From Parcubacteria group bacterium RIFCSPHIGHO2_02_FULL_40_12 (GTDB lineage Bacteria > Patescibacteriota > Minisyncoccia > 2-02-FULL-40-12): a DNA stretch of 41,770 bases. This document shows positions 9,843-27,123 of the stretch, in pieces. Position numbers and translations under genes: made by a program. The DNA lies in the NCBI GenBank assembly GCA_001824375.1, contig MHXE01000001.1:1-41770 (forward strand). Direction: 5' to 3'. The stretch's first letter is position 1, and each line of letters opens with the position of its first letter. The notes under the pieces are model-generated. The model worked only from the letters and a program-made list of their open reading frames with translations. It was not told the origin of the DNA and ran no database searches.

Positions 9843-11624
9843 TTATTTCTTGAGTATCTCTAAATAAACTTCCTGAGGAATCTCAACTCTGCCGCTGCCG
9901 GTTTCTTTGAGCCGCTCCTTGCCGCGTTTTTGCTTTTCCAAAAGCTTCTTCTTTCTCGTCACATCACCCCCGTACAAATAGCCGGTAACGTCTTTTCTCC
10001 GGGCCTTAATCGTTTCCCGGGCAATAATCTTTCCGCCAATCGCCGCTTGCAAAGCCAGACTAAAAAGTTGAGGCGGCATAATATCTTTTAATTTTTCAAC
10101 TACTCTCTTTCCTTCCTGATAAGAGCTCTCTCGGGGCACAATCCGCGAAAATGGTTCAACAGCTTCGCCGCCGATTAAAATATCCATCTTAACCAAATCA
10201 GATTTCTGAAAATCGGTGAATTTATAATTCATTGAGGCAAAGCCGGAGCTGACACTTTTCAGCTTGTCGTAAAAATCAATAATTATTTCAGCCAAAGGCA
10301 CGCGGTATTTCAAAATAATCGCAGTAGAAGTCAGATAATTTGTTTCAAGATATTGAGCCCGATAATCAGGCATCAATTTCATTATTTGCCCGAGATACTG
10401 GCTTGGAGCCAAAATTTCAATCTCTACCATTGGCTCTAAAATTATATCTATTTGACTCAAGTCAGGAAGTTTTGAAGCAGACCGGATTATAATTTCCCTA
10501 CCCTCTCTATTTCTAACCTTATACTCAACCGACGGAGAAGTAATGATTAAATCCAAGCCAAAGTCTCTTTTAAGACGCTCTGAAACGATCTCGGCATGAA
10601 GCATTCCCAAAAAACCGCAGCGAAAACCAGGACCTAACGCATCCGAATGCTCCGGCTCAAAACGCAACGAAGAATCCTGAAGCTTTAACTTTTCCAAAGA
10701 TTCTTTAAAATAACCGAAGTTATCGGCGTTTCTGGGATACAGCGAAGCGAAAACAAAAGGATTCGGCTCTTCATAACCCGCTAAAGCAGCAGCTTCAACC
10801 CCAGCCAAAACAACGGTATCCCCTACCCTCACTTGAGAAATATCTTTTAAGCCAGTAGCGATATAGCCGATCTCGCCGTCGTTCAAGCTTTCTGATTTTT
10901 CCAAATCGGGCTTAAAATAGCCGACCTCAATAACTTCGGCGGCAGCTTTCTGAACAGCAAATTTAATTTTATCTCCGGCTTTAACTTTACCGTTAAAAAT
11001 CCTGACATAAGCGATTATCCCTTTATAGATGTCAAACTTTGAATCAAAAATAAGAGCCTGCAGAGATTCGCCTTTCTGGCTTGGAGAAGGGACTTTTTCT
11101 ATTACAGCTTTTAAAATATCTTCAATCCCTGTTCCAATCTTAGCTGAAATTTTAAAAATTTCTTCTTTTTCCGCGCCGGTTAGATTAATTATTTCCTCTT
11201 CCACTTTCTCTATCTGGGCATTTGGCAAATCAATCTTGTTTATCACCGGAATTATTTTTAAATTCTGCTTCAAGGCAAAGTTATAGTTTGAAAGGGTCTG
11301 GGCCTGAATGCCTTTAGTCGCATCAACCAAAAGAATCGCCCCTTCAACTGCAGCCAAGGACCGCGAAACTTCGTAATAAAAATCAACATGCCCGGGCGTG
11401 TCAATCAAATTCAAAATATAGTCTTGACCTCCCAGTTTATACTTCATTCTTACCGGCTGGAGTTTTATCGTAATGCCTCGCTCCCTTTCAAGAGGATGCA
11501 TATCCAAAAACTGCTCCTGCATTTTTCTTTTTTCAATTGTTCCGGTCAATTCCAAAAACCGGTCCGCTAATGTGGACTTGCCAGAGTCTATATGCGCAAT
11601 AATACAGAAGTTTCGGACGTTCAC
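9843..11624 (-). CDS. lepA: translation elongation factor 4 (LepA)
   Basis: [28 protein letters not shown] and the LepA-specific C-terminal domain. Confidence 0.95.
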   Translation of the reverse strand: MNVRNFCIIAHIDSGKSTLADRFLELTGTIEKRKMQEQFLDMHPLERERGITIKLQPVRMKYKLGGQDYILNLIDTPGHVDFYYEVSRSLAAVEGAILLVDATKGIQAQTLSNYNFALKQNLKIIPVINKIDLPNAQIEKVEEEIINLTGAEKEEIFKISAKIGTGIEDILKAVIEKVPSPSQKGESLQALIFDSKFDIYKGIIAYVRIFNGKVKAGDKIKFAVQKAAAEVIEVGYFKPDLEKSESLNDGEIGYIATGLKDISQVRVGDTVVLAGVEAAALAGYEEPNPFVFASLYPRNADNFGYFKESLEKLKLQDSSLRFEPEHSDALGPGFRCGFLGMLHAEIVSERLKRDFGLDLIITSPSVEYKVRNREGREIIIRSASKLPDLSQIDIILEPMVEIEILAPSQYLGQIMKLMPDYRAQYLETNYLTSTAIILKYRVPLAEIIIDFYDKLKSVSSGFASMNYKFTDFQKSDLVKMDILIGGEAVEPFSRIVPRESSYQEGKRVVEKLKDIMPPQLFSLALQAAIGGKIIARETIKARRKDVTGYLYGGDVTRKKKLLEKQKRGKERLKETGSGRVEIPQEVYLEILKK

Positions 11625-14556: not shown

Positions 14557-15618
14557 TTATATTATAAATTTTTGGATTTTATCTTTAAAAATTTCTTTAT
14601 CAAACTTTTTTACGCTTTCTTTTATTTTTTTTGAATCGAATTCTTTGTGATTAAAACTATTTATTGCACCGAATAAAGAACCTGCTGTTTGTTCATCAAA
14701 AAATAATCCCGTTTCTCCTTCTTCAACTGTCTCCGGTGCTCCGCCGCCTCGATAAGCAATCACTGGACGGCCCGAAGCCATTGCTTCAAGGAGCGCAATG
14801 CCGAAATCCTCTTCCTGGGGGAATATCAACGCCTTGCAGCCGGCATAGTATTTTGGCAGTTCGCTTTCTGAAACCCGGCCAAGAAATTTTACATTATTCA
14901 CTTTTAACTTTTGGCTTTTAGCTTTTAGCTTTTTAAGTTCCGGCCCGTCGCCGATGATTAGTAATTTTTCATCCGGCAATTTGCTGAATGCCTCAATCGC
15001 AATATCAAAACGCTTATACGGCACCATCCGGCCAACCATCAAAAAATACTCTTTGGGCTTTTTTGAAACATAAAATTTCACCGTCTCAAGAGGCGGATAA
15101 ATCACTTTTGATTCGCGGCCATAATATTTTTTAATCCTTTGCCGGACATTTTCAGAATCGGCAATGAAGTAATTAGGCCTCTGGGCAGCCTGGTAATCCC
15201 AGATTCTCAAATAAGCCAGAAGAAGTTGGGAGAAGGGCTTTAAGGGCAGTCCGGCGTCATGCCAAAGATAACGGGTCGGAGTCAGGCAATAGCAGATATG
15301 CTTCGTGGCTGGTTTGGTAATTATCCCTTTGCCGAATGAATGCGAAACGGAAATAACCAAGTCAAAATCGGATAAATCGAACTGCTCAATCGCCAAAGGC
15401 ATCAGCCAAATTAAACTCCGAAAAAACTTTTTGGCGCCCGGGATTTTCTGTAAAAAAGAAGTGCGAATTTTTCTGCCTTTGAAAACTCCGCCAGTCGCTT
15501 TTTCGTCATAGACCAAAGTATAAACCGGCGCCGACGGAAACATCTCGCAAAGCGCCGCCAAAACCCTCTCCCCACCGCCTAATTGAGTCAGATAATCATG
15601 GACTAAGGCGATTTTCAT
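14557..15618 (-). CDS. glycosyltransferase family 4 (GT-B, retaining)
   Basis: MKIALVHDYLTQLGGGERV N-terminus. E-x7-E region EDFGIALLEAMASGRPVIAYRGGGAPETV. Confidence 0.85.
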   Translation of the reverse strand: MKIALVHDYLTQLGGGERVLAALCEMFPSAPVYTLVYDEKATGGVFKGRKIRTSFLQKIPGAKKFFRSLIWLMPLAIEQFDLSDFDLVISVSHSFGKGIITKPATKHICYCLTPTRYLWHDAGLPLKPFSQLLLAYLRIWDYQAAQRPNYFIADSENVRQRIKKYYGRESKVIYPPLETVKFYVSKKPKEYFLMVGRMVPYKRFDIAIEAFSKLPDEKLLIIGDGPELKKLKAKSQKLKVNNVKFLGRVSESELPKYYAGCKALIFPQEEDFGIALLEAMASGRPVIAYRGGGAPETVEEGETGLFFDEQTAGSLFGAINSFNHKEFDSKKIKESVKKFDKEIFKDKIQKFII

Positions 15619-16260
15619 ATAATTTTATCTTCTAAAACTCTATTCCTTAATTTATAAGTATTACCCCATTTCATCAATCCCAGATAAGAATTAAGAGTTT
15701 CCATAGTTTGTGATTTTCGTAACTGCCTCAACATTCTTCTCTTAGTAGTAGTCCTCAAAACTCTATAATAATGGAAATTAATCCAGCCCAGAAAATCAAC
15801 GCCCGAAGCCAGAGTTTTAATGAAAATCTTGTCTGGGTGGATTTTTAATTTTAATCTCTCGGATAAAAACTTCTTAATCGGCTCAATCTGATTTTCCAGC
15901 CAATTCTTATCATCCGATAAAATCACAAAATCATCAGCATATCTGATGTAACATCTGACTCTTAACTTATGGTTCCGGCTTACTTTGCAACCAAATGAAC
16001 AAAAACGATTTAACGCTTTATGAGTTCCTTTATCATTCCGACAGGAGAAAGAATCACTGATAAATGTTCTATCAAAGAAAGGATACAAGATTCTGTAAAT
16101 GGCGTGGTGTAATAACCTGTCTTTGACACTGGCTTTATGGATGTTTCTGGGTTTGGGGTCGTTTATCTTAAAAGCCTTGTAGCCGCCATGGTTATATTGG
16201 AATTCCTGAACATCTTTTTTCTTCCTTTTGCCTCTCAAATAATTTTTGAAAAAGAAAACG
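15615..16260 (-). pseudogene. DGR-type reverse transcriptase relic (N-terminus and motifs 3/4 deleted in frame; YADD and thumb retained)
   Basis: RGKRKKKDV, INDPKPRNIHKASVKDRLLHHAIY, SDSFSCRNDKGTHKAL, YIRYADDFVILS and GVDFLGW match DGR RTs. There is no motif with the first catalytic Asp and no (I/L)GxxxSQ motif. There is no ATG in frame. The track ORF continues to 16361 only by reading through the upstream terminator. Confidence 0.7.
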
Positions 16261-16286
16261 GGTCGGTTGAAAACTCCAACCGACCC
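16249..16286 (-). terminator. intrinsic terminator of the high-GC 156-aa gene
   Basis: 10-bp stem GGGTCGGTTG/CAACCGACCC with a 7-nt loop, followed by GTTTTCTTTTTC on the minus strand. Confidence 0.7.
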
Positions 16287-16324
16287 GCAGGATCCAAGGA
16301 CCAAAAGTCCAAGAATCCAGGTGC

Positions 16325-16795
16325 CTATACTTGCGAGACGACCCGGCGGCCCTGACCCCACCCATTCGGACCCGCCACCGAGCGAGCGAACACGAACCAG
16401 CCGCCGCTGCCGACGAACCAGAACGCGCGCACGGCCCAGACCCCATTTCTACCGTTAAGGTAGAAAATGAACCACTCCGAGCTCTCGCGGTTTTCCGAGA
16501 GAAACGCGCAGAGCTGGGATACGGAAATCTCGGCCTTGTCGCCGAGCTCAGCCAGGATGGAAGCATCAAGCGATACTTCCTCGAGCTTGCGGACGGCAAG
16601 CTCGATCTCCTTGGTCGCTGGCAAGTCCAGACCATAGAACTCGGCCTGAAAGATATCGTTAGCCCACACCACCCCGGCCTCCTCGAAGTATTCCTCGGAG
16701 GTGGTCACGGCTGGCTGGGCGGATACGCGCACCGTGCGAAGGAAAGTGAGAATTGACTTTACCACCTCCGATGCCTGCCGACTGGTCATGACCAT
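16325..16795 (-). CDS. hypothetical 156-aa protein on a high-GC island; the C-terminus resembles a C-type-lectin-fold DGR variable region
   Basis: AAGGAG lies 7 nt upstream of the ATG and a terminator lies downstream. Amino-acid composition is balanced, unlike the overlapping frames. The C-terminus reads NGVWAVRAFWFVGSGGWFVFARSVAGPNGWGQGRRVV. Confidence 0.65.
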   Translation of the reverse strand: MVMTSRQASEVVKSILTFLRTVRVSAQPAVTTSEEYFEEAGVVWANDIFQAEFYGLDLPATKEIELAVRKLEEVSLDASILAELGDKAEISVSQLCAFLSENRESSEWFIFYLNGRNGVWAVRAFWFVGSGGWFVFARSVAGPNGWGQGRRVVSQV

Positions 16796-16856
16796 AACTC
16801 GTCTCCTTTTCTGACTTGTCCCTTTCGGACATGTCCGCTAAATGACTACCTTCATG

Positions 16857-16909
16857 ATAGCCATAGCCAGAAAACACCTTCTTATTAAGTGCCTTTTGGC
16901 TATGGCTAT
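16857..16909. promoter_or_regulatory. perfect 13-bp inverted repeat ATAGCCATAGCCA-N27-TGGCTATGGCTAT upstream of the 156-aa gene
   Basis: Read directly from the sequence, 62-114 nt upstream of the ATG at 16795. Confidence 0.4.
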
Positions 16910-16993
16910 ATCTCGCAAATACATTATAAAAGTACCTATTTAAGCCGTTTCCAGCTTATAATCACATTAAATATCATTTTTTCGCTATTGTCA

Positions 16994-17121
16994 ATATACC
17001 GGCTATGCCGGTATATGTTTGCCTTTCTGGGCAAACGCCTACAGCGATTCCGCAACGAGCCGCAAGCGGCTCGGAGAAACCTTCGACGAGCGGGCATTTT
17101 TACGGTTAGCCGGTGCGCTAC
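16994..17121 (-). repeat. hairpin-repeat family 1, copy B (interrupted by a family-2 element)
   Basis: With 17041-17091 removed, about 61 nt align to the reverse complement of 3396-3479 with 6 mismatches. Four of the six are compensatory within one stem. Confidence 0.8.
17041..17091 (+). repeat. hairpin-repeat family 2, copy 1 (nested in family-1 copy B)
   Basis: ACAGCGATTCCGCA-[CGAGCCGC aa GCGGCTCG]-..AACCTTCGACGAGC. Both 14-nt ends are identical to the copy at 32861-32913. Confidence 0.8.
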
Positions 17122-17130
17122 AAGGTACTC

Positions 17131-17727
17131 TCACCCTTCTGGCCGGTCTTTGAATACCTTCAAAAGCGTCTTAGCTAAAATTTTGAAATCAAGCAATAGG
17201 GACTGACGCTCTAAATATTCTCGTTCGAAATTCATTTCTTCTTCAAAAGTCAGATGGGGATTGTATAACCGCGGCAGACAAGTGATTCCGGCTTTAGCCG
17301 CCACAACTTCAGGATACTGACTTATATATAAATTAACTTCTTCTGGTTCATGCGGCCGCGGCCCAACCAAACTTATATCTCCTTTTAAAACATTTATTAG
17401 AGACGGCAGTTCATCTAAAAAGTATCTTCTCAAAAATCGGCCGACTCGGGTGATCCGTGGGTCATTTTTCATTTTAAAAAATGGAGTGTCTTGTCGGTTA
17501 TTGAAGACTGCTAATTGGCCTTTTTGCAAATGAGCATCTTTAACCATTGAACGGAATTTAATGAAGTCGAATCCTTTGCCTCGGCTGACACGTTTCAATT
17601 TCACGAAAACAGAACCCTTGGAATCAAGTTTGATTAAAACGCCCATTATCAAAAAAAGGGGACTTAGAATAACTAAACCTAAAAAGGATAAAACTATGTC
17701 TAAAAACCGCTTGACTTTTAATTTCAT
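17131..17727 (-). CDS. undecaprenyl-phosphate sugar phosphotransferase (bacterial sugar transferase family)
   Basis: N-terminal TM segment. KMKNDPRITRVGRFLRRYFLDELPSLINVLKGDISLVGPRP is the family signature. Confidence 0.9.
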   Translation of the reverse strand: MKLKVKRFLDIVLSFLGLVILSPLFLIMGVLIKLDSKGSVFVKLKRVSRGKGFDFIKFRSMVKDAHLQKGQLAVFNNRQDTPFFKMKNDPRITRVGRFLRRYFLDELPSLINVLKGDISLVGPRPHEPEEVNLYISQYPEVVAAKAGITCLPRLYNPHLTFEEEMNFEREYLERQSLLLDFKILAKTLLKVFKDRPEG

Positions 17728-17744
17728 TTTGATACAATATATAT

Positions 17745-18126
17745 GTTCTTTGGTAAATCGGGCAGTCGCTCTTTGCTAACATTTTAGCAGAGGGAGGAAA
17801 GTCCGAACACCTACTTTGTTCACAAAGTTAAAAAGGTAGCGGGTAACGCCCGTCGCGAGTAATCGTAGAGGTGCGAACAGAGATGTCTTTGAACGAAAGT
17901 TCAAAGAAAGCAAACCCAAAGATTTGATTCTATCAAATTGAGCTTAGCTCGGTACAATGGGTTAAAAGTATCGGAGTGAAACAGCTAAATCCTTACCCAG
18001 GTGCAAGGCTGTGTCCTTCGGAGCTTTACGCGAAGGAGGAAATGCCGCTTGAGGCCAATGACAACATTGGTCCCAGATAAATGACTGCACAAATACAGAA
18101 TTCGGCTTACAGATTTACCAAGGAAC
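17745..18126 (+). ncRNA. rnpB: RNase P RNA (bacterial type)
   Basis: P4 strands GAGGAAAGTCCG and ACAGAATTCGGCTTA. P1 pairing GTTCTTTGGTAAATC / GATTTACCAAGGAAC. Confidence 0.92.
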
Positions 18127-23630: not shown

Positions 23631-24389
23631 TTATTCGGTTAATACCAGAGAGCCATTTTTGGTTATCGCCACCGTATGTTCAAAATGGGCTGACAAAGAA
23701 TTATCTTTTGTTTTCCAAGCCAAAGTGTTTTTGTCTTCAATCACTTCGTAAGAACCGGCGGATAGCATCGGCTCAATGGCAATAACCATTCCTTCTTTCA
23801 GCACCGGTCCCTTGCCTGGTTTCCCGAAATTAGGCACTTCCGGCTCCTCGTGCAATTCTTTACCGATGCCATGCCCGACCAAATCGCGAATCACCGAAAA
23901 TCCGTTTTTTTCGGCATATTTTTGAATAGCTGAACCGATATCACCCACGGTATTCCCGACTTTTGCCATTTTGATTCCTTTATTCAAAGATTCTCTAGTG
24001 ACTTTTATTAATTTCTCTTTCACTTCTGGTTCTTGATTATTCTCTATTGGTTTCACTAAAACAGTCTCTGCTGAATCAACATTTAAGCCTTTATACCTTA
24101 TTCCAAAATCAAGACTTACCAAATCACCGCCTGCTATTTTTCTTTTTGAAGGAAGGCAATGGACAATTTCTTCGTTTATTGAAACGCACAAAGCAGACGG
24201 ATAATCATGATAACCCAAAAAAGCCGGCTCTGCTCCGGCTTCTTCTGTTATTTTGCGGGCCAGTTCTTCCAAACTCCAAATCGTGATTCCTACTTTGGCT
24301 GCTGACGATAATTTTTTTAGAATCTCCGCTAAAATCTTTCCGCCCTCTTTCATAATTTTGATTTCTTCTTTGGTTTTGATGATAATCAT
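23631..24389 (-). CDS. map: type I methionine aminopeptidase
   Basis: Metal ligands in the D..D/H/E/E pattern: SLDFGIRYKGLNVDSA, GHGIG, IEP, FEHTV. Confidence 0.95.
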   Translation of the reverse strand: MIIIKTKEEIKIMKEGGKILAEILKKLSSAAKVGITIWSLEELARKITEEAGAEPAFLGYHDYPSALCVSINEEIVHCLPSKRKIAGGDLVSLDFGIRYKGLNVDSAETVLVKPIENNQEPEVKEKLIKVTRESLNKGIKMAKVGNTVGDIGSAIQKYAEKNGFSVIRDLVGHGIGKELHEEPEVPNFGKPGKGPVLKEGMVIAIEPMLSAGSYEVIEDKNTLAWKTKDNSLSAHFEHTVAITKNGSLVLTE

Positions 24390-25048
24390 AAACTTGCTTT
24401 GATGTCTCGAAAAACATTTTCAATCGGCTGTTCCCCATTAACTTCCTTCATCTTATATCCGCTTTTCTTGAAATAATCAATCACTGGTTGAGTGTCGCGG
24501 AGGTAAACCCGATACCGCTCCTTTATAATCTCCGGTTTATCTAATTCCCTGGTGATTATCTCCGAACCGTCTTCCGGACAAACTTTTATATTGGCAAACT
24601 CGGGAAAATTAGGGATCGGATGGCGGTTTTTGACGCAAATTCTTCTGGCACTGTTTCTTTTAACCGATTCTTCTTCGCTCAATTTTATTTCCACGGCCCC
24701 AATATTTTCCTTGCTGTAAATTTCAGATAAGTAAGTAAGATTTTGTTTCGTTTCTTCAAGGGTTCTGGCTGAACCGGAAAAAACAAAACCACTCGCCCGA
24801 TTTTTTAAATTTTCAACTTCTTCCCTAAACCATTTAGCTACAAGTTCTGGATGGACTAATTCCCCGGCAATCCAATGTTCTTTTTGGTGAGCGATTTCTT
24901 TATCAGACAGGTCAGCTTCCTTGAATTTTTTCTCAATGACTTTTGAAATCTCAAAATGATAAAAACCGAGCTCCTTGGCTAAAAGTTCGGCTTGAGTTCC
25001 TTTCCCTGACCCCGGCGGCCCGATAAGAAAAATAGCTTTAGATTGCAT
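24386..25048 (-). CDS. adk: adenylate kinase
   Basis: P-loop GPPGSGKGTQAELLAKELG and the canonical secY-adk-map position. Confidence 0.9.
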   Translation of the reverse strand: MQSKAIFLIGPPGSGKGTQAELLAKELGFYHFEISKVIEKKFKEADLSDKEIAHQKEHWIAGELVHPELVAKWFREEVENLKNRASGFVFSGSARTLEETKQNLTYLSEIYSKENIGAVEIKLSEEESVKRNSARRICVKNRHPIPNFPEFANIKVCPEDGSEIITRELDKPEIIKERYRVYLRDTQPVIDYFKKSGYKMKEVNGEQPIENVFRDIKASL

Positions 25049-25051
25049 ATT

Positions 25052-25264
25052 TTATATATTTTTCCACTCCTCAATGTTAATACCCGCTTGCCTTAATATT
25101 TCAGAAATTAAATCTTTTGAAATATCGCTATGGTGAGGATTGGGGATACGAATCTTTAATCTTTCTTTAACCATGAATAAATGACGGCCTCCTGAATAGG
25201 GGCCGTCAAATCCTAATCTTTTGAATTTTTGGACAAATTTTCTCCAAGAAATATTTTTAGGCAT
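25052..25264 (-). CDS. hicA: HicA/YcfA-family mRNA interferase toxin
   Basis: WRKFVQKFKRLGFDGPYSGGRHLFMV...IPNPHHSDISKDLISEILRQAGI. I prefer the MPKNIS start at 25264, which overlaps the hicB stop by 8 nt. Confidence 0.8.
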   Translation of the reverse strand: MPKNISWRKFVQKFKRLGFDGPYSGGRHLFMVKERLKIRIPNPHHSDISKDLISEILRQAGINIEEWKNI

Positions 25265-25502
25265 GCCGGGCCATAGAACGCCTGTCAAATTTCATTTCAA
25301 AACCAGGCACCCTTTCGCCTTCCTTTATTTTTAGTAAAATCCATCCTTCTAAAACTTCTTGAAGCTCTTTTCGGCAGTCCTCTAAATTTTTGGCATTGGC
25401 CCAAACACCCTTTATTCCGGGAATTTCTGCAAAATAGGTTCCATCTCTAAGAAGTTTATATTTCGCTTTTTTCAAATTTTTATTTATAAAATCAGTCAAC
25501 AT
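25257..25502 (-). CDS. hicB: HicB-like (UPF0150-type) antitoxin
   Basis: YFAEIPGIKGVWANAKNLEDCRKELQEVLEGWILLKIKEGERVP. I prefer the start at M31 of the track ORF, because residues 1-15 are a duplicated adk N-terminus. Confidence 0.7.
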   Translation of the reverse strand: MLTDFINKNLKKAKYKLLRDGTYFAEIPGIKGVWANAKNLEDCRKELQEVLEGWILLKIKEGERVPGFEMKFDRRSMARHA

Positions 25503-25508
25503 AAAAAC

Positions 25509-25537
25509 ATTATAGAGTATCTCCAAACTTATTTCAA
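25509..25537 (-). promoter_or_regulatory. near-consensus sigma-70 promoter TTGAAA-N17-TATAAT directly upstream of hicB
   Basis: Read on the minus strand. The -10 ends 6 nt before the ATG at 25502. Confidence 0.5.
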
Positions 25538-25545
25538 TAGCGCGC

Positions 25546-25592
25546 TCCTTCCCCGACCCCGGCGGCCCGATGAGAAAAATTGCTTTAGGCAT
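25546..25592 (-). pseudogene. duplicated 5' fragment of adk (MPKAIFLIGPPGSGK)
   Basis: About 45 nt align to 24998-25048 with a few, mostly synonymous, differences. Homology ends after GGGAAGGA. Confidence 0.8.
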
Positions 25593-25624
25593 TAAATAAA
25601 CAATAACAGAACAATTTATATAAA

Positions 25625-25860
25625 AAAGTCGCCGGCATCTCGCGATGAGACGCCGACGGCAGGATCACTCCGACAGTTCTGGCGGCGGCCGATAGCCCAG
25701 AAACATCTGCCGCTCGGCAATTCTTCGCAAAGATACCGGCCATTTCCTAGGACGACTACCCGACTCATAAATTGATACGCCTCGCCGCTTTCCCTCGGGC
25801 TTCGCCGGACACAATTCTGATTGGGGACGGAATCTAGATAAAGAAAGGGCATATGCCCGA
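25625..25860 (-). ncRNA. candidate GC-rich structured RNA or foreign non-coding insert between secY and adk'
   Basis: About 55% GC in an AT-rich genome. It starts with the GGGCATATGCCC hairpin after the secY stop and contains multiple helices. It ends in a GUCGGCGUCUC/GAGAUGCCGGCGAC stem plus U6. The overlapping ORFs have non-protein-like composition. Confidence 0.4.
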
Positions 25861-25863
25861 GCT

Positions 25864-27123
25864 TTAATATTCATACATCGAGAGTTGGCTCTCCACTTGC
25901 TTCATCACATCCAACGCCACTGAAACAACGATAAGCAAAGAAGTGCCGCCCAAAGTGATGGCGGAAATCCCTGTGAATCCTTGGACGATGGACGGTAAAA
26001 TCGCAATCAAGCCGAGAAAGACCGCTCCGACAAGGGTTATCCGGTTTAACAAATGACTTAAGAATTGAGACGTGCTCGGACCTGGTCTAATGCCGGGAAT
26101 ATACCCGCCTTGTTTCTGGATATTTTCCGAAATTGATTTAGGATCAAAAGTAATCGCAGTATAAAAATAAGTGAAGCCGACGACTAAAACAAAGTATAAA
26201 AATCCGTAAATCAATTGATTGGTCAAAAAACGGTTGAACACTTCGGCTAAATTAGAAAGAAAAACGATCTTTGAACCGACAAAAAAGTTAGCGATCATCC
26301 CCGGAAAAAGCAAAATAGACAAAGCAAAGATTATGGGAATCACGCCTGCCTGATTGACCCGCAAAGGCAAATAAGTCGAAACGCCGCCATACATTTTGAA
26401 TCCGCGCACCCTCTTGGCATAGTTTATCGGAATCTGCCGCTGGGCTTCGGTAATATAAACTACCCCGCTGATTATGATTACCGCTAAAATAATATAACCG
26501 ACATAAGTAAAGAGTTGGCTTGGATCATAACCGAAATAAAGCTGTCTGATTGCCTGCGGGCCTGAAGCAACAATGCCGGCGAAAATCAAAAGAGAAATTC
26601 CATTACCTAAGTTCTTTTCCGAAATCAATTCCCCCAGCCACATCACAAATACTGTACCGGCGCTCACTACAATCAAGGAAACCAACCATTGATTCAGGGA
26701 TAAAGTGCCGATAATGCCCTGCCTAGAAAGTATAGTTAAAAAACCAAAACCCTGAAGCAAGGCCAAAGGAACAGTAAGGATGCGAGAATACTGGTTGAAT
26801 TTCTGCCTGCCGGCCTCGCCTTCATGTTTATACATTTCCTCAAGCTGGGGGAAAATCATCGTCAAAAGCTGCATGATGATCGAAGCGGTGATATACGGGC
26901 CGACCCCCAGCATTATGATGGAAAGGGTTTCAAGACCGCCGCCGGTAAATAAGCTTATCAATCCGAAAAGCTGGTTTTGGGCAAAAAACTGGGCTAACCG
27001 GCTTGAATCAATCCCTGGGACAGGAATCGCGGCCATCACCCGGAAAATAACCAAAAGCCCCAAGATAAAAAACACTCTCTTTCTTAAGTCCGGTATTTTG
27101 AAAATTTTCAAAATTTTATCCAT
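25864..27123 (-). CDS. secY: preprotein translocase subunit SecY
   Basis: 10-TM profile, conserved SecY segments and operon position. Confidence 0.95.
   Translation of the reverse strand: MDKILKIFKIPDLRKRVFFILGLLVIFRVMAAIPVPGIDSSRLAQFFAQNQLFGLISLFTGGGLETLSIIMLGVGPYITASIIMQLLTMIFPQLEEMYKHEGEAGRQKFNQYSRILTVPLALLQGFGFLTILSRQGIIGTLSLNQWLVSLIVVSAGTVFVMWLGELISEKNLGNGISLLIFAGIVASGPQAIRQLYFGYDPSQLFTYVGYIILAVIIISGVVYITEAQRQIPINYAKRVRGFKMYGGVSTYLPLRVNQAGVIPIIFALSILLFPGMIANFFVGSKIVFLSNLAEVFNRFLTNQLIYGFLYFVLVVGFTYFYTAITFDPKSISENIQKQGGYIPGIRPGPSTSQFLSHLLNRITLVGAVFLGLIAILPSIVQGFTGISAITLGGTSLLIVVSVALDVMKQVESQLSMYEY

Follow-up and report, generated by a model that had tools for sequence, protein, structure and literature searches.

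A probable relic of a diversity-generating retroelement in a Parcubacteria genome: a target gene that appears frozen in one variant

The analysis presented here concerns a 41,770-nucleotide stretch of DNA (hereafter the window: contig MHXE01000001.1 of assembly GCA_001824375.1, positions 1 to 41,770 of the forward strand) from Parcubacteria group bacterium RIFCSPHIGHO2_02_FULL_40_12, and within it a GC-rich gene for a 156-amino-acid (aa) protein that lies directly upstream of a reverse transcriptase (RT) remnant. This gene is very probably the decayed target of a diversity-generating retroelement (DGR) of the type carried by bacteria of the candidate phyla radiation (CPR), with the template repeat (TR) gone, the RT dead and a single variant of the variable region (VR) frozen in place. 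The decayed element falls within a known group of CPR DGRs. The following features carry this reading:

16325..16795, minus strand: DGR target (variable-protein) gene of a decayed cassette; 156 aa, ATG start, 60% GC, GC at third codon positions (GC3) 0.72-0.76
16328..16441, minus strand: VR of 114 nt, very probably now frozen, encoding VWAVRAFWFVGSGGWFVFARSVAGPNGWGQGRRVVSQV; placed by in-register alignment with related TRs
15615..16241, minus strand: DGR-type RT relic with motifs 1-2 and the YADD/thumb part kept; placed by Pfam, PHROGs and alignment to the RT of an intact relative (locus L010)
16242..16257: deletion junction; at this place intact relatives hold ~0.75-0.85 kb with the spacer, the TR, bAvd (antisense) and ~25 codons from the start of the RT

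The variable region and its active relatives

In mutagenic retrohoming, the RT and bAvd copy the TR transcript to complementary DNA (cDNA), with random bases placed opposite template adenines. The initial annotation, made from the sequence of the window, had proposed that the adenine-starved end of the gene was a VR shaped by this process, and the hand counts behind it were all reproduced by computation. About four adenines had been counted in the last ~110 nt, and on the coding strand 16335-16444 does contain A=4, C=30, G=51 and T=25 (110 nt; binomial P for four or fewer adenines in 110 = 4.4e-7). The depletion is also confined to the tail, as claimed, with 3.6% A in this segment compared with 20.2% in the remaining 351 nt of the gene. 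Set against the TRs of its homologues, the window VR aligns in register and has 25-28 of the ~30 TR adenine positions substituted, which indicates that the window copy underwent retrohoming in the past. Its 3' end (TCGCAAG) is of the VR type, while TRs carry TCGAAA at this place, and besides this 3' end, which resembles an initiation of mutagenic homing (IMH) site, two hairpins lie downstream of the target stop. The window VR has the fewest adenines among the members listed, and its variable positions encode four Phe and three Arg; by a rough estimate, TTC codons may be in excess here (four Phe from presumed AAC codons). This alignment, and the homologues in which mismatches to the TR fall at TR adenines, identify the adenine-poor C-terminal end of the gene as a true DGR variable region.

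The homologues themselves form a large family. A homologue search recovered 66 close homologues, with the named sources all Parcubacteria, Zambryskibacteria or other CPR-type metagenome-assembled genomes (MAGs), and an exhaustive profile search (E<=1e-3) recovered 1364 cluster representatives at 50% identity, mostly of 145-220 aa. One protein (P0103, 926 aa) carries five tandem copies of a ~145-aa domain, each with a VR-like segment at its end. The last ~40 residues of the family align as WAVxAxWxxxxGGWxVxAxSVxxPxxWxxGxxVVS, and in the VR alignment invariant columns alternate with columns of ~3-bit entropy that hold 10-14 residue types. The residues found in the variable columns are the AAC-derived set (D, Y, R, H, S, G, N, F, L and C).

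How these targets are arranged in an intact cassette emerged from a comparison of loci from GTDB species genomes (13) and from metagenomes (46). In L010, L011, L017, L019 and L022, tblastn located the last 37 aa a second time, ~270 nt past the gene, with the RT ~450 nt further on. Every mismatch between the VR and TR cores fell at a TR adenine in L010 (16/16), L017 (20/20), L022 (15/15) and L039 (15/15), and the census as a whole identified at least 17 distinct loci whose VR and TR (~114 nt) differ at 13-21 positions, with all or almost all of the differences at A. In these loci the TR lies 150-290 nt 3' of the VR and is followed by an antisense bAvd and the RT. Each TR holds 27-32 adenines, mostly in AAC codons, and each VR 7-21, with a fixed base difference at the 3' boundary (VR ..TCTCGCAAC.., TR ..TCTCGAAAC..) and small GC-rich hairpins after the VR. 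The antisense open reading frame (ORF) between TR and RT is bAvd-like (PF22296, E=9e-10 in L011 and 6e-8 in L071, a DGR considered below), a matching antisense frame was seen by eye in L010, and the intact RTs of the relatives carry the DGR-type LPLGNLTSQ. Because of these TR/VR pairs, the bAvd and the DGR-type RT, the family is, on comparative grounds, a bona fide DGR target family with the order target, TR, antisense bAvd, RT, and the target-then-RT order to which the initial annotation had drawn attention recurs in the relatives. About 14 family members have no TR or RT in at least 1.4 kb downstream.

In the active relatives, the cDNA overwrites the last ~114 nt of the target and recodes ~15 codons of the AAC/AAT type. 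An AlphaFold model of this small alpha/beta protein places the recoded codons in a loop and on two beta-strands.

Loss of the cassette and the fate of the variable region

The window locus retains only part of this arrangement. As reported in the initial annotation, there is no TR in the 41.8-kb window: the best ungapped match to the VR covers 50-51 of 114-120 nt (51/120 at best), which is background, and the ungapped sliding search of the orphan loci likewise returned background matches only. The accessory bAvd gene is also absent from the window, unlike L011 and L071. The distance from the target stop to the RT is ~790-900 nt in intact cassettes (e.g., L010 and L011) compared with ~70-85 nt in the window, where RT homology resumes at ~16256-16241, right past the terminator of the target gene. 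The short gap therefore points to a single deletion that took the spacer, the TR and bAvd together with ~25 codons at the start of the RT.

The relic that follows had been recognised from its sequence as a DGR-type RT directly downstream of the target, and Pfam, PHROGs (phrog_1423, 3.8e-45) and the alignment to the L010 RT all agree, with the closest intact RTs 65-75% identical to it. Compared with the intact 323-aa L010 RT, the relic is missing the N-terminal ~25 aa, an 18-aa block and a 75-aa block that bears motif A (DIRKFF) and motif B (LPLGNLTSQ), while YADD (motif C) is retained. The Pfam RVT_1 match covers profile positions 147-203 only, the last quarter of the model, and the called ORF (15615..16361) over-extends at its 5' end into the target gene. 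By the evidence of these missing motifs, the window RT is dead as an enzyme.

Two related genomes hold the same site at a more advanced stage of loss. The neighbourhood of L023 matches that of the window (Bac_transf, target, GT4 glycosyltransferase and DUF4012), as does that of L024 (target near the contig end, GT4 and DUF4012), and the flanking proteins of both are 57-76% identical to those of the window. In both loci the RT is cut to its last ~25 codons and fused just past the post-VR hairpin, and in L032 only the last ~40 RT codons are left. As the sister lineages L023 and L024 have reduced the RT further, the window appears to be an intermediate stage of decay. The stop of the RT relic and the start codon of the GT4 glycosyltransferase gene share bases (ATGA, 15615-15618), and this overlap, together with the retention of the last ~25 codons alone in L023 and L024, suggests that the RT tail probably survives as the carrier of the GT4 translation-initiation region. 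Separately, L023 (4927-5760) and L024 (140-940) share one sequence (100% identity) from the middle of the gene to the GT4 start, VR and hairpins included. The 5' half of the gene body diverges by ~10%, and the N-terminal modules and the leaders are entirely different; the pair appears to be a recombination mosaic, which hints at recombination between target modules.

The VR of the window is the same wherever the gene was encountered. An identical copy of the window protein is encoded on 19 contigs, and four more encode a variant with one aa change outside the VR; together these come from at least 10 samples. The VR itself shows no difference across more than 20 contigs, despite single-nucleotide polymorphisms (SNPs) in the flanks. 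Ten other assemblies differ from the window by at most five SNPs over ~3.3 kb, none of them in the VR. Homologue P0219 is 94% identical, retains 38 N-terminal codons that the window copy has lost and carries the same VR, so the VR variant was fixed before the 38-codon deletion. Because it is invariant across assemblies, the VR appears to be inherited as ordinary DNA. The scaffold outside the VR has a dN/dS of 0.12 (window versus L023/L024), which indicates purifying selection on the target scaffold, and for this reason the gene probably persists as a fixed-specificity binding protein. The very probable course of events is that the window copy was diversified in the past and then lost the system. 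One deletion took away the TR, bAvd and the 5' end of the RT, two further in-frame deletions cost the RT its motifs A and B, and the VR is now passed on as ordinary DNA in a single Phe- and Arg-rich variant.

Alternatively, the target could still be active, with a DGR at another place in the genome that diversifies it in trans, which is unlikely. In the A2913 genome (RIFCSPLOWO2_01_FULL_40_65) the window protein is A2913_01755, and a search for DGRs of that genome, in which the top 120 of ~8000 RT matches were checked for the A2913 prefix, identified a full-length RT (A2913_00495). Locus L071 of the same genome (3976-6337, GCA_001824315.1) is an intact DGR with a 185-aa target, a TR at ~4826, an antisense bAvd, a 363-aa RT and 19/20 VR/TR mismatches at A. 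A CTTGGA/CTTGGAC motif after its VR resembles the hairpin motif after the window VR. However, the L071 TR has 51 non-A mismatches to the window VR in 114 nt, and because the two sequences are unrelated it cannot template the window VR. The identity of the VR in contigs from many samples despite SNPs elsewhere, and in a lineage that predates the N-terminal deletion, also argues against ongoing diversification. A degenerate 39-nt pattern built from the window VR had 0 matches to a cognate TR or VR among JGI metagenome contigs, a collection that may lack the relevant contigs of this organism.

Several points nevertheless weigh against a frozen target and, in part, in favor of service in trans. 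Consensus assemblies alone were compared, such that low-frequency VR variants in populations would stay hidden, the check for a cognate TR covered part of the genome, and MAGs are incomplete. The window VR keeps its IMH-like 3' end and the downstream hairpins, and could accept cDNA given a cognate TR. Members without an adjacent TR or RT recur in the family, and one such orphan, L014 in MAG nzgw498, looks as though it is serviced by a DGR 79 kb away: the L014 VR (10330-10444) differs from the L012 TR (10714, contig JAHFOF010000001.1) at 24 A positions and three non-A positions, compared with 11-16 non-A mismatches to foreign TRs. L012 and L014 are thus two family targets in one genome with a DGR beside only one, and L014 is an apparent case of trans diversification by the L012 DGR. 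The DGR may also have been lost before or after the split between the window and L023, so the low dN/dS does not strictly reflect selection after the loss. Between a fossilised target and one serviced in trans, the two readings offered by the initial annotation, the invariant VR, the dead RT, the deleted TR and the non-cognate second DGR favor the fossil.

Composition, signals and fold of the target

The gene was initially noticed as a jump in GC content inside an AT-rich locus, and windowed counts agree (an ORF of 60% GC in a window of 40% GC). Windows of 200 nt range from 0.575 to 0.615 GC across 16300-16800 compared with 0.31-0.46 in most flanking windows, while in 300-nt windows the island peaks at 0.61, ~4 standard deviations above the mean of the 41.8 kb (0.40, standard deviation 0.05), and is the sole strong GC outlier. 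The GC of the 156-aa ORF by codon position (0.60/0.44/0.76) is the pattern of a translated gene. Within the window, GC3 is 0.72 for the target body, 0.43 for GT4, 0.38 for the RT relic and 0.36 for Bac_transf, and dS to L023 is 0.68 for the target versus ~2 in the flanking genes.

The initial annotation had raised the possibility that the gene was acquired from a high-GC organism, such as a host, and the comparison does not bear this out. A recent acquisition of this kind, for instance by an episymbiont from its host, with the A-poor tail as donor codon usage, is very improbable. Such an origin would fit the contrast between a target with 60% GC and a GC3 of 0.72-0.76 and a genome with 40% GC and neighboring-gene GC3 of 0.36-0.43, but the named sources and traced loci of the homologues are all CPR-type genomes and the same GC excess is present in every member whatever the GC of the host genome (gene body 0.50-0.61 and VR 0.61-0.76 in genomes of 0.37-0.48). 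Synteny extends to relatives whose flanking proteins have diverged (57-76% identical), which implies that the gene is old and vertically inherited at the site. Nor does donor codon usage fit an A-depletion that is limited to the VR. In L010 the target (0.56) and TR (0.58) are GC-rich, with spacers of 0.36-0.42 and an RT of 0.39, and the L071 target, although unrelated, is also 62% GC. As all members and the L071 target are GC-rich, this composition is a property of these DGR targets as opposed to a foreign mark. The high GC itself is family-wide; an overlapping antisense gene as the source of the high GC3 and low dS was rejected, with the codon-aligned antisense frame free of stops in only 11/32 members.

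An RNA origin for the island can be given almost no weight. In that case the GC-rich sequence would be a structured RNA (group II intron domains or the msr/msd of a retron) and the 156-aa ORF an artefact of a stop-poor, GC-rich sequence. The adjacency of GC-rich DNA to an RT, several long ORFs that overlap the island in other frames and the best NCBIfam match of the RT relic (a group II intron RT model, far below cutoff) could be read in this way. Against it stand the clear codon-position periodicity of the island, a protein conserved with a dN/dS of 0.12, an AlphaFold model with a pLDDT of 92, the same antisense frame open in only 11/32 members, and intact relatives whose TR/VR pairs and bAvd are DGR-defining. 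A group II intron or retron is thereby ruled out by the coding signal, the conservation of the protein and the TR/VR pairs. Rfam returned no match at its gathering threshold in the whole window, and at E<=5 only a chance snoRNA match in 16150-17200.

The decayed DGR target is thus a protein-coding gene, and the signals around it, all on the minus strand, are as follows:

16803..16808: Shine-Dalgarno sequence AAGGAG, 7 nt 5' of the ATG, as read from the sequence
16764..16769: junction of the in-frame 114-nt (38-codon) deletion in the N-terminal module, from DNA alignment with L023; P0219 keeps these codons
16290..16318: first hairpin 3' of the VR, GGAUUC..GGACU-UUU-GGUCC..GGAUCC, a predicted fold conserved in L023/L024
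16248..16288: intrinsic-terminator-like hairpin and T run that would close the target transcription unit, a predicted fold
16857..16909: long 5'-leader hairpin with arms ATAGCCATAGCCA / TGGCTATGGCTAT, found with family members in unrelated contexts

The expression unit is as first described, with the ATG at 16795, the ORF running to 16325 and AAGGAG 7 nt before the start. The terminator had been placed at 16249-16286 with a stem of 10 bp; the hairpin predicted here, 14 pairs at 16258-16288 (minus strand) with a T run after them, is in essence the same one, and the 111 nt past the target stop have a fold z-score of -5.1. At the terminator site L023 and L024 have other sequence that likewise forms a hairpin followed by a T run. 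The 16290..16318 hairpin occupies the place where inverted repeats flank DGR VRs. Upstream, the leader hairpin GCCATAGC..GCTATGGC covaries in L015, L004 and L039, and Rfam has no match for it. A structured 5' leader is common to family members of unrelated genomic context (upstream regions of L010-L024; 16857-16909 and 16813-16836 on the minus strand of the window). Members with the 'MAKY' type of N-terminus have two small leader hairpins, CCUC-GGGCA-GAGG and CGGCU-UUC-AGCCG, directly 5' of the Shine-Dalgarno sequence and with compensatory changes, and in some members a strong TTGACA-N17-TATGAT promoter replaces the long leader hairpin.

The initial annotation had compared the protein to C-type lectin (CLec) and formylglycine-generating enzyme (FGE) folds, and this resemblance is unsupported. 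The 156-aa protein has no match in Pfam, NCBIfam or PHROGs, none of 35 family members (25 aligned, E<=10; 10 remote, E<=0.1) matches the Pfam FGE-sulfatase or DUF1566 models, and a sequence-profile search of the PDB returned nothing relevant. AlphaFold2 provided confident models both for the window protein (25-sequence alignment; pLDDT 92.3, pTM 0.84) and for a member of 182 aa from an active DGR (61 sequences; pLDDT 89.4), and the order of elements agrees between the two. Solved CLec variable proteins are present in the PDB, and Foldseek found no match there for either model (best E 0.85 and 0.19, TM-scores <=0.27) and nothing at E<=0.001 in BFVD (best E 0.33), with query-normalised TM-scores <=0.27 throughout. 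In the model of the window protein the VR forms strands 118-127 and 132-139, a loop at 140-150 and a last strand at 151-155, in which variable residues (123, 125 and 127; 134, 136 and 138) alternate with invariant ones and should line one face of a beta-hairpin. For the unrelated L071 target, hhalign gave a weak match to the window family over the C-terminal 59 columns (E=7.5e-4, probability 25%), and no Pfam-annotated relatives of its own family were found.

The family does share traits with the CLec variable proteins (Mtd, TvpA, AvpA and TaqVP). Both have a C-terminal VR and a conserved scaffold around the variable codons, there is a loose likeness between the family motif GGW...A.S...P...G..VVS and the CLec motif GGSW...A.R...P...GFRVV, and the family order past residue 75 (two helices, four strands) is readable as the CLec alpha1-alpha2-beta2-beta5. 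Unlike the variable loops of CLec proteins, the variable residues of the family are predicted to alternate on two beta-strands. A speculative interpretation, which is more doubtful than probable, is that the family represents a widespread, CPR-specific, non-CLec DGR scaffold: a compact ~145-aa alpha/beta domain, alone or in up to five tandem copies, in which a loop and one side of a beta-hairpin would present ~15 diversified residues. Its GC-richness (GC3 ~0.7, low dS) would then stem from nucleic-acid-level constraint or from biased gene conversion linked to retrohoming, and lineages like that of the window would have repeatedly 'domesticated' one selected variant by discarding the retroelement.

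Two further loci in the window were noted. A UPF0150/HicB-like ORF (25257-25592, minus strand) lies between secY (25864-27123) and adk (24386-25048), and its first ~15 codons duplicate the adk start (M.KAIFLIGPPGSGK). A HicA toxin gene beside it is called in assembly L002 and not in L001, and GC content is slightly raised (0.52-0.53) in the adjoining upstream DNA (25551-25950). A class A RNase P RNA of the bacterial type (17750-18125, plus strand; 141 bits), with several shortened helices, is encoded between Bac_transf and RNase H, on the strand opposite to these genes.

Comparison with known systems and implications for the family

The intact relatives closely parallel the DGR of phage BPP-1 (mtd VR, TR, avd and brt; the DGR mechanism is summarised in PMC5758913). 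Both have a 3'-terminal VR with a TR nearby, mismatches only at TR adenines and mainly in AAC codons, VR and TR 3' ends that differ by a fixed base (IMH/IMH* in BPP-1), GC-rich hairpins past the VR, an Avd-like gene and an RT with LGxxxSQ. The family differs from BPP-1 in that its bAvd is antisense, between TR and RT, and in that the target is a stand-alone protein of 150-200 aa with no detectable CLec fold as opposed to a tail fibre. The window copy differs further, as it is without a TR or avd, has an RT without motifs A and B, and is chromosomal in a CPR bacterium and not in a phage.

The closest published counterparts are the CPR DGRs (the 'CPR set' of Wu et al., PMC5758913, and clade 2 of Roux et al., PMC8144416), which, like the family, come from groundwater Parcubacteria MAGs, are cellular and not viral, and have targets without recognisable domains; the RT falls in a cluster with thousands of RTs from CPR bacteria. 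Six VR classes from CPR genomes, UVR1-6, were left unassigned by Wu et al. (2018; PMC5758913), and the family may be among these. Published DGR catalogues required an RT plus a TR/VR pair and are blind to remote or orphan targets (PMC8144416), and the window element would be excluded from them by this requirement. Like the cyanobacterial DGRs with distant targets (PMC7517822), the family has members without an adjacent TR or RT, among them L014, which matches a TR 79 kb away. Unlike the remote-target DGRs, the window bears the marks of loss: an RT relic still attached, a TR deleted in situ, an invariant VR and a non-cognate second DGR.

The annotation of this locus can now be settled, with a 'hypothetical protein' beside a weak RVT_1 match becoming a decayed DGR and the GC island providing no evidence for gene transfer from host to symbiont. 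The target family of 1364 clusters has no Pfam model, and its confidently predicted fold is unmatched among solved and viral structures. This bears on the claim of Roux et al. (2021; PMC8144416) that annotated VRs are systematically CLec and that the unknown ones are probably new CLec variants. At one chromosomal site, repeated loss of the DGR machinery has left the target in place and under purifying selection. The resulting natural series, from intact cassette to RT relic, RT tail and clean orphan, is usable for the study of a hypervariable protein after its diversification ends. And because RT-anchored searches miss orphan targets, GC-rich ORFs poor in synonymous change within AT-rich CPR genomes could serve as a flag for DGR targets, orphans included.

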